Origin: a virus
Virus genome (UHGV): UHGV-0180691
Strand: one strand, 5' to 3'
DNA: 40,865 nucleotides
This document shows, in pieces, positions 3,142 to 15,889 of the stretch (position 1 is its first letter; every line of letters starts with the position of its first letter). The position numbers and the translations under genes are program-made. Under the pieces are notes generated by a model, which did no database searches, was not told where the DNA came from, and saw only the letters and a list, made by a program, of their open reading frames with translations.

Positions 3142-3668
3142 GCGCGTGATTCCATAAGCTCATTGAAACGGTTAATGAACAAGCCATATGCCTGGCCTGG
3201 GCGAAGTGGAACGATCTGGATAATGTCGCTGGCCGGAATACCTTCGAGGCAAGGCCAGAGTGAACCGTCGTCGATATCCAGATCGCGGCGTTCAGTGGCA
3301 AGCATCACCAGATCGGCATATTTCACTACCGCTGACATATCAGAGGTTATGCTGAATTTGGTGCGGATCAGGTCATCAACCATCGTTTCGATGCGTTGAT
3401 AATCCGGCAGAAGTGCTTTGAGAGGAGCAGGGATGTCCTGGCAATACGCTTCGGCCGCGTCATGCATCAGGGCTTCAAAGGCAAACTCTGGCGGCACAAT
3501 TTGGCTGCACAGCACCGAGTGCTGGGCCACGCTGTAAAATTCCGGCAGATGACCAGTGAAGCGGCAGATGTGTGAAAGTGCGGTCGCAATATCCTCGATC
3601 TCCACATCGTCAGCGGTTGAATTGAGGTAATCGAATTTCTTTCCTGAAAGTGTCTGGATATAACTCAT
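3129..3668 (-). CDS. yfdR: HD-domain phosphohydrolase (YfdR-like 5'-deoxynucleotidase family)
   Basis: 179 aa; HD motif context (ALMHDAAEAY) and upstream His (ALSHICRF); size and neighbourhood match the CPS-53-type early-left block. Confidence 0.65.
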   Translation of the reverse strand: MSYIQTLSGKKFDYLNSTADDVEIEDIATALSHICRFTGHLPEFYSVAQHSVLCSQIVPPEFAFEALMHDAAEAYCQDIPAPLKALLPDYQRIETMVDDLIRTKFSITSDMSAVVKYADLVMLATERRDLDIDDGSLWPCLEGIPASDIIQIVPLRPGQAYGLFINRFNELMESRACHA

Positions 3669-11399: not shown

Positions 11400-12092
11400 A
11401 TGAATCAGTTAACCGCAAAGGGTGTTGTGACAATGTCCAGCCGTGAAATTGCCAGGCTGGTGCAGAGCAAACATGGTGATGTGAAGCGCTCAGCTGAGCG
11501 CCTTGCATCTGCTGGTATTTTAACCGCGCCGTTGGCGCACACCCCCTACACACACCCGCAAAACGGGCAAACCTACGAGGAGTATTGGTTCAACAAACGT
11601 GATTCTCTGGTGATCGTCGCCAGGCTGTCGCCAGAATTTACCGCCGCTGTTGTCGATCGCTGGCAAGAGCTGGAGAACAGCCAGGCCGTAAGTGTCCCGC
11701 AAACATTGCCGGAGGCATTACGTCTCGCCGCGGATCTGGCCGAGCAGAAAGAACAACTCAGCCAGCAGTTAGCCGCTGCCGCGCCGAAAATTGAGTTTGT
11801 CGATCGGTATTGTACTGCCAAAGGCTCAATGTCTTTCCGCCAGGTGGCAAAGCTGTTGCAGGCCAAAGAGACCGATTTCCGCTTGTTCCTCATTGAGAGC
11901 GACATTATGTACCGGCTCGGCGGAGTGCTGACACCGCGGCACCAGCACATTGCTGCCGGGCGGTTTGAAGTGAAAACTGGCACCACGAGCGAAACAAACT
12001 ACGCCTTTAGCCAGGCACGTTTTACACCCAAAGGCATCGAGTGGATCGGCGGCCTGTGGACGGCACACATCGCTAAGGGGCATGCCGCGTGA
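11400..12092 (+). CDS. Rha/antirepressor family protein (N-terminal Rha-like, C-terminal Ant-like domain)
   Basis: ATG at 11400 with GGAG upstream; N-terminal MSSREIARLVQSKHGDVKR pattern typical of Rha family; assignment from memory. Confidence 0.6.
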   Translation: MNQLTAKGVVTMSSREIARLVQSKHGDVKRSAERLASAGILTAPLAHTPYTHPQNGQTYEEYWFNKRDSLVIVARLSPEFTAAVVDRWQELENSQAVSVPQTLPEALRLAADLAEQKEQLSQQLAAAAPKIEFVDRYCTAKGSMSFRQVAKLLQAKETDFRLFLIESDIMYRLGGVLTPRHQHIAAGRFEVKTGTTSETNYAFSQARFTPKGIEWIGGLWTAHIAKGHAA

Positions 12093-13150
12093 GAGGACTG
12101 TTTACAGCCGAGACTGTTCCTCGCCTTGGCCTAGTGGTGTTAAAGCCGGGCAGCGAACTGATGTCTCTGTTTCAACAGGGGCGTGTGCTGGTGGAGCCTC
12201 AGCCAAAAAGCATGGCTGGGCTTCCGTCGGGCCTCGTCCCTGATGCCAGGCAGCCGCTGGCAGAAGATAAGTCCCTCGAGGAATTCTTCACCGACGAGAG
12301 AGTAATCCGTGCAGCTGGCGGTTTGACCGCGTTGGAATCCTGGTTAGAACGTAACGTGAAGGAATGCCAGTACCCGCACACTGATTATCACCATCATGAG
12401 CTGGTAACGATGCGACACCCCCCTGGATCAATGTTGCTCTGTTGGCATTGCGATAACCAGCTGCGCGATCAAACCACCGCGGCGCTGGCAGAACTGGCCC
12501 GGCGTAATCTCATTAACTGGCTGATCAGTTCCATCCTGTCATCGCTTGGCTATAACAACGAGCGTGAATTATCCCTCGGTGAATTGTGCTGGTGGGCCGT
12601 CTATTCAGGCATTGCTGTTGCAATCACGGAAAGGATGGCCCAGCGTGCGCTTCGATTACCGGACGAGTCGTTTTTATCCGTATATCGAGAAAGTGACATT
12701 GTGCCGATGCCCCCCGCTAAAAGCATTTTGCAGAAGAAGGTCACCCCTGCGGTCACGGCTGCGAAATTAAAGCATGGAGCAAATCAGGAAGTGGCCTATG
12801 ACCAGCCAAAGGTTCTGGCTCTGCATGCGGATCCTGAATCCCCTGAATCATTCATGTTGCGCCCAAAACACCGCAGGTGGATGAATGAGGACTATACCCG
12901 GTGGGTTAAAACCCAGCCCTGTGAAGGTTGCCGGCGGCCAGCGGATGATCCACACCATGTCATTGGTCACGGCATGGGCGGTACCGCCACTAAAGCCCAC
13001 GATTTGTTCGTGATCCCTCTGTGCAGAGAGTGTCACGACAAATTACATGCTGATGTTGCAGCGTTCGAGAAAAAACACGGTACCCAGCTGGAGCTGCTAT
13101 TCCGGTTTATGAATCGAGCGCTGGCGATCGGCGTAATAACAAAAGCGTAA
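12089..13150 (+). CDS. DUF968-type phage protein (YdfU-like) with C-terminal Cys/His HNH-like motif
   Basis: 353 aa; GTG start with AAGGGG RBS; C-terminal CEGCRRPADDPHHVIGHG...CRECHDKLH. Confidence 0.55.
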   Translation: MRGLFTAETVPRLGLVVLKPGSELMSLFQQGRVLVEPQPKSMAGLPSGLVPDARQPLAEDKSLEEFFTDERVIRAAGGLTALESWLERNVKECQYPHTDYHHHELVTMRHPPGSMLLCWHCDNQLRDQTTAALAELARRNLINWLISSILSSLGYNNERELSLGELCWWAVYSGIAVAITERMAQRALRLPDESFLSVYRESDIVPMPPAKSILQKKVTPAVTAAKLKHGANQEVAYDQPKVLALHADPESPESFMLRPKHRRWMNEDYTRWVKTQPCEGCRRPADDPHHVIGHGMGGTATKAHDLFVIPLCRECHDKLHADVAAFEKKHGTQLELLFRFMNRALAIGVITKA

Positions 13151-13171
13151 TTGTATGGAGCGCTGAGCATA

Positions 13172-13864
13172 ATGAATTTACAAGAACTGGAATATACGCG
13201 GATTGAACTGCGCCGCGCGCTGGCGGATTTATCAGGATCGACAAAAGGACAGCTGCAGGCGTTCAGTGAGCATCCACCAGCAGATAAGAATAAATACCCT
13301 CGGCACCATCCTGAAATCGTCATGGAGGGTGGGGAAGGTTGTGGATCGAAGGTTGTAAAAACTCTGGCCACTCCGCTTTATGTTCTTGAGACAAGGAGCC
13401 GTCGCCGACCTTTACCGCCTATTAAGGATACGGAGTTCGCTTGTTCAGCATGGCGTCGATCGGTCAATGGTCTGGGGGCGCATTTGCAGGCATGGGTGCG
13501 GTACTGCTATGGGCATGACCTTGCTTTCCGGTACCAGAGGTTAATGTGCCAGCACGTATGGGAAGAGTTTCAGCGTCAGCATAGCGGCAAAAAAATCCAA
13601 GACCGTGTCACTAAAAAACTGGTAGGGCTTGTCTGGCTGGCGGCGCAAGAAGTTGCTGCCTCGCGTAATAACGATACCTATCAGGAGTATGCTGGAGCAG
13701 CTCTGGCGCGCATGGTCAGCGTTGAGCGTTCCACCTGGCTCAGAGTGTATTCAGGCCACTGGGCAGCTTTCAAAGCGTCGTTTTCGGAGATGGACAGCCA
13801 GGCACTAAGCGAAATTTTGACACGGTACGAAGAGTACCAAGAACTGAAAGTGGCGGAAATGTGA
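13172..13864 (+). CDS. putative late-gene antiterminator (Q-like)
   Basis: ATG at 13172 with GGAG upstream; immediately upstream of a strong intrinsic terminator and the lysis cassette, the canonical Q position; sequence family not verified. Confidence 0.5.
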   Translation: MNLQELEYTRIELRRALADLSGSTKGQLQAFSEHPPADKNKYPRHHPEIVMEGGEGCGSKVVKTLATPLYVLETRSRRRPLPPIKDTEFACSAWRRSVNGLGAHLQAWVRYCYGHDLAFRYQRLMCQHVWEEFQRQHSGKKIQDRVTKKLVGLVWLAAQEVAASRNNDTYQEYAGAALARMVSVERSTWLRVYSGHWAAFKASFSEMDSQALSEILTRYEEYQELKVAEM

Positions 13865-13957
13865 GGTAACTTTCACTAACTCCCTCAATTAGGCTTGCAA
13901 AATGCAACAAAATAAGCGATATTTGAAGCTAATTTGATATATTGCCAAAAGTTTATA

Positions 13958-13982
13958 AACCCGCCAGCGAGCGGGTTTTTTA
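13958..13982 (+). terminator. rho-independent terminator (tR'-like) downstream of Q-like gene
   Basis: Stem CCCGC / GCGGG with loop CAGCGA followed by T6. Confidence 0.7.
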
Positions 13983-14003
13983 TTAGATGTTTTTTAAGGA
14001 ATC

Positions 14004-14291
14004 TTAAGGGAAAACACTACTCCATTGGAATTGAGCTCCTGCATCGAAGATTGTTAGCTCTGCGACATCTCTTGGTGTTCTCTTAGCTTTAAATGCTGGG
14101 CTATTTTCGTAAAAGCACTTCATGTTTTTCATATAGCGGTATAACACATCGCCAGAAGCATCATAAATAATAAATGAATCAATATTATGTGTATTAGTCT
14201 TTGATTCATTCGGGTCGATGTAACAAACAATGTTTCTTATAGCTTGGCGCACTTGCGCGATACTCTGAAATGACACAACTAGTACCTCCAA
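14004..14291 (-). CDS. doubtful hypothetical ORF in AT-rich spacer
   Basis: 95 aa but TTG start and weak RBS; internal ATG lacks an RBS; listed only because it is the sole ORF in a roughly 690-bp AT-rich interval. Confidence 0.15.
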   Translation of the reverse strand: MEVLVVSFQSIAQVRQAIRNIVCYIDPNESKTNTHNIDSFIIYDASGDVLYRYMKNMKCFYENSPAFKAKRTPRDVAELTIFDAGAQFQWSSVFP

Positions 14292-14550
14292 TTTCTTATG
14301 AATACTCTTTATATATCGTCTAGATGCATGTTTTCTTTATGCCAGGTCTTTATTTTTATAAATACGGCAAGTTCTAATTAGAAATTGAGCGCTTCCAGAT
14401 AGGGAGCATTTATTTGTGGAAATGGGCGGCTGGTGGGTGTTGTAGCACCCAACCAGCCATTAGCTCATGCTTTCAGGTCACAAGCTAACCAAGGCCCATT
14501 GCTTTAGCGCAAAAGCATAGTGAGCCTATCAGAGTTACGCTTACGGATCT

Positions 14551-15603
14551 ATGAAAAATACTGTAAATATAAACAGTGTTGAGCTTATCAACGCTGACTG
14601 CCTGCAATACCTAGCAACCCTCCCAGATAACACCATCGACCTTATTGTTACGGATCCGCCTTATTTTAAGGTGAAGCCGAACGGCTGGGATAATCAGTGG
14701 AACGGTGACGCCGACTATCTTCGCTGGCTTGATATGTGTCTTGCCCAGTTCTGGCGAGTGCTTAAGCCTGCCGGCAGCCTGTATTTGTTTTCAGGTCACC
14801 GACTTGCATCCGATATTGAGATCATGATGCGTGAACGCTTCAACGTCATGAACCACATTATCTGGGCGAAGCCATCAGGGCGCTGGAACGGGTGTAATAA
14901 AGAAAGCCTGCGCTCTTACTTTCCCGCGACGGAACGCATCCTTTTCGCTGAGCATTATCAGGGGCCATATAAGCCGAAAAGCGACGGGTTTGCTGAGAAA
15001 AGCAACGAGGTCAAACAGCACGTCATGGCTCCGTTAATCACCTACTTTCGGGATGCACGAGCCGAACTGGGGGTCACGTCCAGGCAAATAGCTGACGCCA
15101 CCGGAAAGAAAAATATGGTGTCTCACTGGTTCGGTGCCAGTCAGTGGCAACTACCGAACGAGCAGGATTACGAAAAGCTGCAGGAATTGTTCACTCAGAT
15201 CGCCATTGAGAAGCACCGCGCCTCAGAACTCAAAGCACCGCATCACCAGCTGGTGGCCACATGGCATTCGTTGAACCGGAAATACCTTGATCTGCTGGAA
15301 GAGTACAAATCTCTTCGGCGGCATTTCTCTGTGACAGTAGCCGTGCCCTATACAGACGTCTGGACACATAAACCCGTCCAGTTCTATCCAGGCAAACACC
15401 CGTGCGAAAAGCCCGCTGATATGTTGCGGCAAATCATCAACGCCAGCAGCAGGCCCGGCGATGTGGTAGCTGATTTCTTTATGGGCTCGGGATCAACTGT
15501 TAAAGCAGCCATTGAACTGGGCCGCCAGGCTATCGGCGTAGAACTGGAAGAGGAACGTTTCAACCAGACGGTAAGTGAGGTGAGGCAGCTGGCAGGGGAA
15601 TAA
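14551..15603 (+). CDS. DNA methyltransferase, N6-adenine/N4-cytosine class (beta-type, DPPY motif)
   Basis: 350 aa; VTDPPYF (motif IV) near N-terminus and FFMGSGST (motif I, AdoMet binding) near C-terminus, the order typical of beta-class amino-methyltransferases. Confidence 0.8.
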   Translation: MKNTVNINSVELINADCLQYLATLPDNTIDLIVTDPPYFKVKPNGWDNQWNGDADYLRWLDMCLAQFWRVLKPAGSLYLFSGHRLASDIEIMMRERFNVMNHIIWAKPSGRWNGCNKESLRSYFPATERILFAEHYQGPYKPKSDGFAEKSNEVKQHVMAPLITYFRDARAELGVTSRQIADATGKKNMVSHWFGASQWQLPNEQDYEKLQELFTQIAIEKHRASELKAPHHQLVATWHSLNRKYLDLLEEYKSLRRHFSVTVAVPYTDVWTHKPVQFYPGKHPCEKPADMLRQIINASSRPGDVVADFFMGSGSTVKAAIELGRQAIGVELEEERFNQTVSEVRQLAGE

Positions 15604-15673
15604 AAGCTTGGGTCGCTATCGCGGCCCTTTTTATTACCTCAACTGGACACCCGCAACGTAGCGAGGTGAGAGC

Positions 15674-15889
15674 ATGTATCGAATGGAAAAAATCACGACG
15701 GGTATTGCATACGGCGCATCGGGAGGGGGGACCGGATACTGGTTGCTTCAGCTCCTCGATAAAGTCTCCCCATCTCAATGGGCGGCCATTGGTGTGCTCG
15801 GTAGCCTCATGTTTGGTTTGCTGACGTGGTTAACGAGTCTGTACTTCCAAATTAAAGCGGATCGCCGCAAAGCTGCGCGGGGTGAATGA
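15674..15889 (+). CDS. S: class II holin / pinholin (phage 21 S-like), dual-start motif
   Basis: 71 aa, two predicted TM helices, C-terminal RRKAARGE; Met1-x-Arg-Met4 dual start; strong resemblance to phage 21 S pinholin as I recall it. Confidence 0.85.

Follow-up and report, generated by a model that had tools for sequence, protein, structure and literature searches.

The lambda cIII mRNA, which according to Altuvia and colleagues in 1989 reportedly adopts two conformations of similar energy, one of them occluding the translation start, and the add adenine riboswitch, a translational ON riboswitch with a three-way junction aptamer, both control translation through alternative folds of the mRNA. 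In phage Mu the translation of mom, a harmful late DNA-modification function, is controlled by Com (PMC3299994). Passages of Murray et al. 2018 (PMC5778455) describe M.EcoGII as a non-specific adenine methyltransferase which is silent in lysogens and deleterious if expressed constitutively, report that it also methylates adenines in RNA, and state that the enzyme of phage 1720a-02 is very similar to it. Here we describe a conserved, structured leader RNA of ~135 nucleotides (nt) directly upstream of a methyltransferase gene, assigned by sequence to the M.EcoGII family, in the virus genome UHGV-0180691. This stretch of 40,865 nt, referred to below as the window, is a lambdoid prophage. An inverted repeat at 14429-14457, pointed out in an earlier note on this DNA, forms a hairpin (here P2) that is real and functional as RNA, and that is one part of a larger element. 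The leader is a new RNA family with an unusually wide distribution, of a known kind, namely structured leaders controlling the translation of phage late genes. Functionally it is akin to Mu com/mom, lambda cIII and the translational riboswitches, and it belongs to none of them.

The resemblance to Mu com-mom lies in a late, host-harmful DNA adenine-modifying enzyme whose start region is placed in an mRNA helix (P5 in the leader), and in a small protein gene located directly upstream (PMC3299994). Among the examined loci that of Aeromonas phage phiARM81ld alone has an annotated Com-like gene, situated between leader and methyltransferase. In contrast to Mu, neither the window nor most of the relatives have a gene for a Com zinc-finger protein, the usual neighbour being an unrelated winged-helix protein; the leader, with five helices and two folds, is far larger than the mom stem, and the enzyme is a beta-class methyltransferase, not Mom. 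As in cIII, near-isoenergetic folds are found in the mRNA of a lambdoid phage, and their balance would set the translation rate. Sequence, gene and position are different, however, the leader being located in the late operon just past the terminators overridden by Q, and its folds are inferred from covariation, whereas those of cIII were shown biochemically. With ON riboswitches such as add the leader has in common that the junction shares a strand with the start-sequestering helix and that a pairing (S1:S2) competes with the closing helix, but it matches no riboswitch in Rfam and is limited to one phage gene family. The enzyme is, like M.EcoGII and M.EcoGI, of the beta class, and would belong to the same family via the 1720a-02 methyltransferase, to which it is 76% identical and which passages of the 2018 paper link to M.EcoGII; it has 350 amino acids (aa), compared with 349 aa for the M.EcoGII family. 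Upstream RNA elements are not mentioned in the passages of Murray et al. 2018 (PMC5778455) that deal with upstream sequence, expression, prophages and homologues. Likewise, no RNA upstream of these methyltransferases was found to be described in the literature, including the paper on Hfq-CRAC (cross-linking and analysis of cDNA) in enterohaemorrhagic Escherichia coli with its supplements and the StxS paper.

The repeat reads GCTGGTGGGTG-ttgtag-CACCCAACCAGC, letter for letter as it had been reported, and the description of it as a GC-rich hairpin lying upstream of the methyltransferase and lacking a T-run was accurate. It forms 12 pairs with a free energy of -26.1 kcal/mol, the stem being longer by one G:C pair (14428:14458) than noted and A14451 being bulged, and lies 94 nt from the ATG at 14551. 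RNA folding, one of two checks named in the earlier note, showed that the segment 14420-14466 is more stable as RNA than expected by chance (-26.1 kcal/mol, z = -4.16), and none of 200 dinucleotide shuffles was equally stable. A sliding minimum free energy (MFE) scan of 10,205 overlapping 47-nt segments, covering the entire plus strand of the 40.9-kb window, gave its lowest value in the hairpin region (-28.0 at 14421), and the stretch pointed out originally ranked second. A gapless inverted-repeat finder did not report P2, owing to the bulge, and is of no use as a background measure. The U-tract of an intrinsic terminator was not found after P2 on either strand (plus-strand tail AUUAGCUC, minus-strand tail GCCCAUUUCC), and the terminator scan called neither strand. 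The hairpin does lie between genes, as had been stated, but the place is not free spacer: it belongs to a conserved block.

This block comprises ~135 nt of the plus strand, about 14415-14550, and ends at the methyltransferase ATG. A BLAST search with 13860-14560 recovered two conserved pieces, one consisting of the end of Q and the first terminator and the other extending from ~14415 into the methyltransferase, the middle being variable. The second check named in the earlier note, conservation across relatives, revealed that the block is kept before orthologous methyltransferases. In a set of upstream regions holding one genome per species, ~136 nt up to the ATG are retained in 56 loci, from Enterobacter, Salmonella, Citrobacter, Klebsiella, Erwinia, Providencia, Serratia, Ewingella and Lonsdalea; the nearest methyltransferase loci in a sequence search were from Enterobacter and Buttiauxella. 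A DNA pattern representing only the leader matched at least 120 viral contigs, and a methyltransferase open reading frame (ORF) was located ~131 nt after AATGGGCG in all 118 that could be evaluated. The covariance model R1 detects a single leader copy in the window (14411-14556, plus strand, 171.6 bits). Weaker matches precede the homologous gene in Pseudocitrobacter, Gilliamella and Serratia, and distant ones in Yersinia phage PY54 (66 bits), Vibrio phage VHML (54.6 bits) and E. coli phage N15 (46.3 bits), where the copy directly follows an annotated late promoter and terminator. In phiARM81ld the copy (41.5 bits) precedes the Com-like gene, which overlaps the methyltransferase. The leader is furthermore carried by SfV, cdtI, mEp460, Citrobacter phiNP, 1720a-02 and phages converting to Shiga toxin (Stx) 2a, 2c and 2d, and by 2,635 of the 5,426 complete E. 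coli genomes, in which as many as 8 copies can be present. The leader was not found at some methyltransferase loci (L029, L033, L074, L076, L077 and phiO18P), and Xenorhabdus has a shorter variant in which GAAAUGGGCGG and the hairpin are kept.

Covariation was assessed in an alignment of 50 leaders (A2) and in a second one (A3), built with the model, which comprises 83 leaders of which 77 are distinct. All five whole-structure measures lie above 500 out of 500 shuffles and above every slid control. Within P2 (14428-14439 with 14446-14458) both sides have changed in 10 of the 12 pairs while 95.9% of the cells are paired, and the corresponding figures for P4 (14500-14505 with 14512-14517) are six of six pairs and 90.3%. 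P3, formed by strands S2 and S3 (14462-14469 with 14479-14486), shows changes on both sides in all 8 pairs, exemplified by 14462:14486, which is C-G 34 times, A-U 16 times, U-A 10 times and U.G 7 times. Such changes are seen also in 7 of the 10 pairs of P5, formed by S3 and S4 (14476-14486 with 14538-14549; 85.2% of cells paired). P1, the pairing of S1 with S5 (14422-14427 with 14494-14499), has compensatory changes at three loci (L018, L070 and L069), and S1:S2 (14422-14427 with 14463-14468) is 96.8% paired and varies solely between G.U and G-C or between U-A and U.G. In the short helix AGGC:GCCU (14492-14495 with 14524-14527) the pair 14493:14526 is G-C in 58 cases and A-U in 9. All three strands are altered in concert in phiARM81ld, which has CGUGGC as S1 and GCCACG as both S2 and S5. 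P2 is thus almost certainly a helix of a conserved structured RNA.

Two further helices and a leader peptide were rejected. P0 (UGUGGA with UCUAUG), which would bury the AUG in fold A, has one-sided variation only, with a G-C pair broken in 30 of the 77 distinct leaders, and the alignments, read by eye, show uncompensated U-to-C changes in P6 (AUCAG with CUGAU). The seven-codon ORF starting at the AUG of S1 (MGGWWVL) ranges from 3 to 43 codons or is open-ended in the relatives, and its peptide is not conserved. In the window this mini-ORF (14422-14445) ends within the hairpin loop, and its two Trp codons are supplied by the UGGUGG in the Chi octamer. S1 starts with AUG, GUG or UUG in 77 of 77 distinct leaders, and this start codon may have a role in ribosome entry.

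As S1, S2 and S3 have two partners each, the helices fall into two sets that cannot form together. Fold A consists of P1, P2, P3 and P4, the first three of which form a three-way junction, and fold B of S1:S2, which lengthens the hairpin, together with P2, P5, AGGC:GCCU and P4. Both are backed by covariation. When each fold was imposed as a constraint, the energy difference over 50 homologues was +1.7 +/- 3.9 kcal/mol; the energies in the window are -54.4 for fold A and -52.4 for fold B, and the MFE structure of its leader is fold A while the centroid is fold B. Members of the window's clade have G14545 where most relatives have U, a change which weakens P5 and creates a GGA at -8 to -6, and which is probably a single evolutionary event.

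Several observations concern the methyltransferase start. P5 covers -15 to -2 of the start, the window has no in-frame start upstream of 14551, and in the alignments a clear Shine-Dalgarno sequence is missing from most relatives. Conservation at synonymous codons is 0.94 for codons 1-10 and 0.75 for codons 11-20, falling to 0.55-0.65 later (baseline ~0.6), and this raised conservation of the early codons indicates that the constrained nucleotide element extends into the coding region, in the window over 14551-14610. Taken together, the position of P5, the lack of an upstream start and of a Shine-Dalgarno sequence and the constraint on the early codons point to translational control in cis, and it is moderately probable that the ~135-nt plus-strand leader acts on the methyltransferase in this way. 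The gene is the first of the late operon in the lambdoid prophage, and from the gene order the hairpin is expected on the late transcript, between the Q-overridden terminators and the first late gene. We propose that RNA polymerase modified by Q would read through the upstream terminators and include the leader in the late mRNA. In fold B, S3 would pair with S4, burying the start region from -15 to -2 and repressing translation, whereas in fold A the pairing of S1 with GCCCAU and of S2 with S3 would draw S3 off S4 and relieve the repression, so that the balance of A and B may set methyltransferase output. A ligand, a 63-aa winged-helix protein, the methyltransferase itself or folding kinetics are candidates for shifting this balance. 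A rationale for tight control would be that M.EcoGII-type enzymes are reported to be harmful when constitutive. A P2-containing leader of the late-operon mRNA that gates the methyltransferase by means of two folds is in our view the best overall explanation, and modestly likely to be the correct one.

The coordinates of the leader and its surroundings are given in Table 1.

Table 1. Features of the leader region and its surroundings; positions are those of the window unless a locus is named.
Feature	Position	Strand	Details
DUF968/HNH gene	12089-13150		
Antiterminator Q gene	13151-13864	+	PF06323, E = 4e-39
First terminator after Q, tR' candidate	13957-13985	+	Terminator scan; kept with the Q end in Flotzy and E. 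coli prophages
95-aa ORF	14004-14291	-	In AT-rich insert
Intrinsic terminator-like hairpin, GCTTCC-agata-GGGAGC with T-rich tail	14391-14416	+	Directly 5' of the leader; terminator scan
5' flank, UGUGGAA	14415-14421	+	TGT near-invariant
S1, AUGGGC	14422-14427	+	Pairs with S2 (14463-14468) or S5 (14494-14499)
P2 hairpin	14428-14458	+	12 pairs, bulged A14451, loop UUGUAG; Chi octamer GCTGGTGG at 14429-14436 in 5' arm
S2, AGCUCAUG	14462-14469	+	5' strand of P3 (fold A) or partner of S1 (fold B)
S3, GGUCACAAGCU	14476-14486	+	3' strand of P3 (fold A) or 5' strand of P5 (fold B)
AGGCCCAU	14492-14499	+	GCCCAU (S5) closes P1 with S1 (fold A); AGGC pairs with GCCU 14524-14527 (fold B)
P4 hairpin, UGCUUU-agcgca-AAAGCA	14500-14517	+	
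GCCU, partner of AGGC	14524-14527	+	Within conserved GAGCCUAUCA
S4, CGCUU-ac-GGAUC	14538-14549	+	3' strand of P5, over -13 to -2 of the methyltransferase start
DNA methyltransferase gene	14551-15603	+	350 aa, beta-class N6_N4_Mtase, N-terminal DPPY
Terminator	15610-15627		
P21-type holin gene	from 15674		
Lysozyme gene	from 15886		
Winged-helix gene, examples	L002 2823-3014; SfV orf47 (L203 2296-2490); L204 3794-3991		Between tR' and leader

Several results weigh against a single switching leader, and they bear mostly on a reading with two RNAs, in which a plus-strand leader takes fold B and a separate minus-strand antisense RNA in fold A, complementary to leader and start region and ending ...GCCCAUUU, represses the methyltransferase by pairing with its mRNA. 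Antisense control of this type is exemplified by sar on ant in P22 and OOP on cII in lambda. In the helices specific to fold B (S1:S2, P5 and AGGC:GCCU) G.U greatly outnumbers A.C on the plus strand (168 versus 22), which fits plus-strand RNA. The helices specific to fold A (P1 and P3) have 206 A.C/C.A cells against 11 G.U on the plus strand and resemble minus-strand RNA, since these mismatches become G.U there. Across homologues the plus-strand MFE structures are mostly fold B (0.61 of the B pairs versus 0.15 of the A pairs), and those of the minus strand are fold A in most homologues (0.60 of the A pairs versus 0.10 of the B pairs). In four of six distant homologues (PY54, N15, VHML and phiARM81ld) the minus strand is more stable by 4-16 kcal/mol, and its z-scores are slightly better than those of the plus strand both in the window (-3.92 versus -3.45) and in PY54 (-4.39 versus -3.56). 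A sense leader accompanied by a structured antisense RNA accounts for this no less well than one bistable RNA does. Many of the aligned leaders are moreover close kin, so that cell counts overstate the independent events, and the predicted accessibility of the start region (-15 to +6) is too alike in the two folds (0.49 in A, 0.41 in B), with the consequence that the assignment of ON and OFF follows from helix position and not from a computed effect. The window also has no winged-helix gene, one of the candidates for shifting the balance, and a minus-strand ORF is found in its place. On the other hand, no sigma-70-like promoter was called on either strand of 14380-15700 and none is visible by eye near the ATG, and the fall of synonymous constraint to baseline beyond about codon 20 argues that there is no conserved promoter deeper in the methyltransferase gene. 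The terminator scan called no canonical terminator on the minus strand, and most of the A.C cells stem from one tandem mismatch common to one large clade, hence few independent events. Furthermore, the plus strand is certainly transcribed in the late operon, whereas transcription of the minus strand is not known. We therefore keep the single plus-strand leader as the best explanation, and regard the antisense model as a serious rival that is nevertheless unlikely. It is plausible, if a shade short of probable, that one and the same RNA takes fold A as its alternative conformation, and that this fold does not belong to an antisense RNA.

The remaining readings start from the hairpin or the junction. 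The earlier note had suggested a regulatory protein binding site or, alternatively, an RNA element governing the processing or stability of the downstream methyltransferase transcript. Taken as a DNA operator, the former is not supported, as the arms change and yet stay complementary via G.U intermediates, the neighbouring long-range helices are unfit as operator half-sites, and the leader is kept at loci having different or no adjacent regulator genes; binding of a protein to the leader RNA is possible. Winged-helix proteins usually bind palindromic DNA, the gene for one is adjacent in 139 of 175 loci, and a leader follows all 79 of 79 close winged-helix homologues, but the covariation of the P2 arms, the 41 G.U against 22 A.C cells that break the DNA symmetry, the long-range RNA pairings and the absence of the winged-helix gene from the window all speak against an operator. 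The hairpin's 5' arm varies somewhat less than its 3' counterpart (mean column entropies 0.60 and 0.76) and holds at 14429 one of 22 plus-strand Chi sites, where ~1 would be expected; the octamer is, however, present in 49 of the 77 distinct leaders and lost in the other 28 with the helix kept (95.9% paired), and would give a secondary benefit at most. A terminator, finally, is contradicted by the missing T-run. Action at the DNA level, through an operator, Chi as the selected feature or a terminator, is accordingly extremely improbable. The RNA part of the suggestion fared better: the helix covaries and is strictly linked to the methyltransferase gene, but the unit is ~135 nt with at least five helices instead of 29 nt, and the covariation of P5 over the start points to translational control more than to simple stabilisation. 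Processing of the RNase III type is possible; S1:S2 with P2, ~18 bp with an internal loop, could serve as such a site in the late transcript and set the fate of the methyltransferase mRNA, with the lambda N leader and lambda cIII as the closest precedents. The long, imperfect and covarying duplex of about two helical turns, its rank as the most stable local fold of the window and its position at the 5' edge of a cistron within a polycistronic phage transcript agree with this. It is nonetheless highly improbable as the explanation of the element, leaving the covarying P3, P4 and P5 and the helix-embedded start region unaccounted for. If the leader were a true riboswitch, its three-way junction (14422-14499) would serve as the aptamer of a small molecule such as S-adenosylmethionine (SAM) or S-adenosylhomocysteine, and the ligand would fix fold A and free the start region. 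The layout is typical of riboswitches, in that the ~78-nt junction has the highly conserved unpaired segments GAAAUGGGCGG, CAUUC and AACCAAGGCCCAC and the presumed expression platform behind it has a strand in common with it; the association with a SAM-dependent enzyme is strict. At 36 of 175 loci the leader is kept where the winged-helix gene is missing, and in phiARM81ld it stands beside a Com-like gene. Yet the Rfam search gave no likeness to known riboswitch classes, confinement to a single family of phage genes is commoner where control is autonomous or mediated by a protein, and the internal mismatch of P3 varies between clades and is therefore not a binding pocket, so we consider a true riboswitch very unlikely. 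At the gathering threshold Rfam 15 had no match in the entire window; with permissive E-values the best match in 14380-14580 was the Pseudomonas small RNA P26, which scored 20.3 bits on the minus strand (E = 0.03), where the gathering threshold is 36, and the others were microRNA models with E > 1. More broadly, and quite unlikely in our estimate, the leader could represent a novel bistable riboswitch-like RNA class gating the translation of M.EcoGII-family non-specific adenine methyltransferases, triggered by a metabolite such as SAM or by the enzyme's own activity, or, as a variant, a sense/antisense pair with each strand selected for its own fold. N6-methyladenosine introduced by the methyltransferase into the A-rich junctions or the A-U pairs of the leader could then shift the fold, giving feedback by RNA methylation.

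The single plus-strand leader is most often accompanied by the gene for a 63-aa winged-helix protein, found just upstream in ~80% of the loci, and the leader was present at every one of the 79 evaluable loci found via this protein. The protein corresponds to phrog_331, where its function is given as unknown, and has weak TrmB/MarR-like Pfam hits; it could be a partner acting in trans or a sensor of methylation. Its gene ends, in most relatives, with a stop codon placed in the loop of the terminator hairpin ahead of the leader. A hairpin with a U-tract occurs at this position in 77 of 98 distinct upstream regions, with differing stem sequences. In the window ~45 nt of the 3' end of the winged-helix gene and the terminator hairpin are left (14368-14416), and the 14004-14291 ORF together with 14292-14390 looks like a moron insertion. 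No match to the 95-aa product of this minus-strand ORF was found in Pfam, NCBIfam or PHROG. The hairpin at 13957-13985, ~95 nt past the Q stop codon, is probably the tR' of the late promoter; T-runs on both sides make it a possible bidirectional terminator, and it may terminate the minus-strand ORF 14004-14291 as well.

Inspection of the other loci gave some additional observations. In a Stx2a phage (L204) the order is Q, a small ORF, leader, methyltransferase, tRNAs and stx2AB, and ARAGORN identified no tRNA or tmRNA gene in the window. The phiARM81ld locus (L286, 820-1280) has a strong promoter-like site, TTGACA-17-ATAAAT, followed by a terminator, the leader and the Com-like gene, so that one phage combines this leader with a regulator of the Mu Com type. 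One viral contig (L151) carries the module of winged-helix gene and leader twice on the same strand, at 287-433 and 3272-3418, ~3 kb apart. N15 gene 52, the methyltransferase (L288, 1366-1735), is annotated with a start at 1735, while homology and the leader place the start at ~1501; the annotation probably sets the start too far downstream, unless the gene is disrupted. Near-identical enterobacterial methyltransferase loci were met in assemblies labelled Geobacteraceae, Vagococcus, Chryseobacterium, Collinsella, Pseudomonas lundensis, Bacillota and Martelella (L009, L013, L030, L047, L052, L079 and L081), and are most likely the result of contamination or mis-binning. No structure of a close relative of the methyltransferase was found in the PDB. 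Chi octamers (GCTGGTGG) are present 22 times on the plus strand of the window (1-40865) and 3 times on the minus strand, all of the plus-strand sites being co-oriented with late transcription; base composition alone would give ~0.9, and 200 first-order Markov simulations never yielded more than 5, so that the enrichment is both strong and biased to one strand.

The presence of a covarying ~135-nt RNA lacking an Rfam model in about half of the complete E. coli genomes, as well as in model or medically relevant phages such as SfV, N15, PY54, VHML and the Stx2a/c/d-converting phages, gives an impression of the scale of this family. With up to 8 copies per E. coli genome there is scope for recombination between prophages at the leader block. 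In the Stx2 phages the leader is situated past the late promoter and ahead of the toxin genes, and is therefore carried by every toxin transcript from that promoter. The two folds and the strand asymmetry make the leader a good system for the study of RNA switches or of sense/antisense co-evolution, and it could help to keep under control the expression of an enzyme in wide use as a methylation tool. For the biology of the prophages themselves, the leader offers a testable reason why intact genes of the M.EcoGII type are silent in lysogens.

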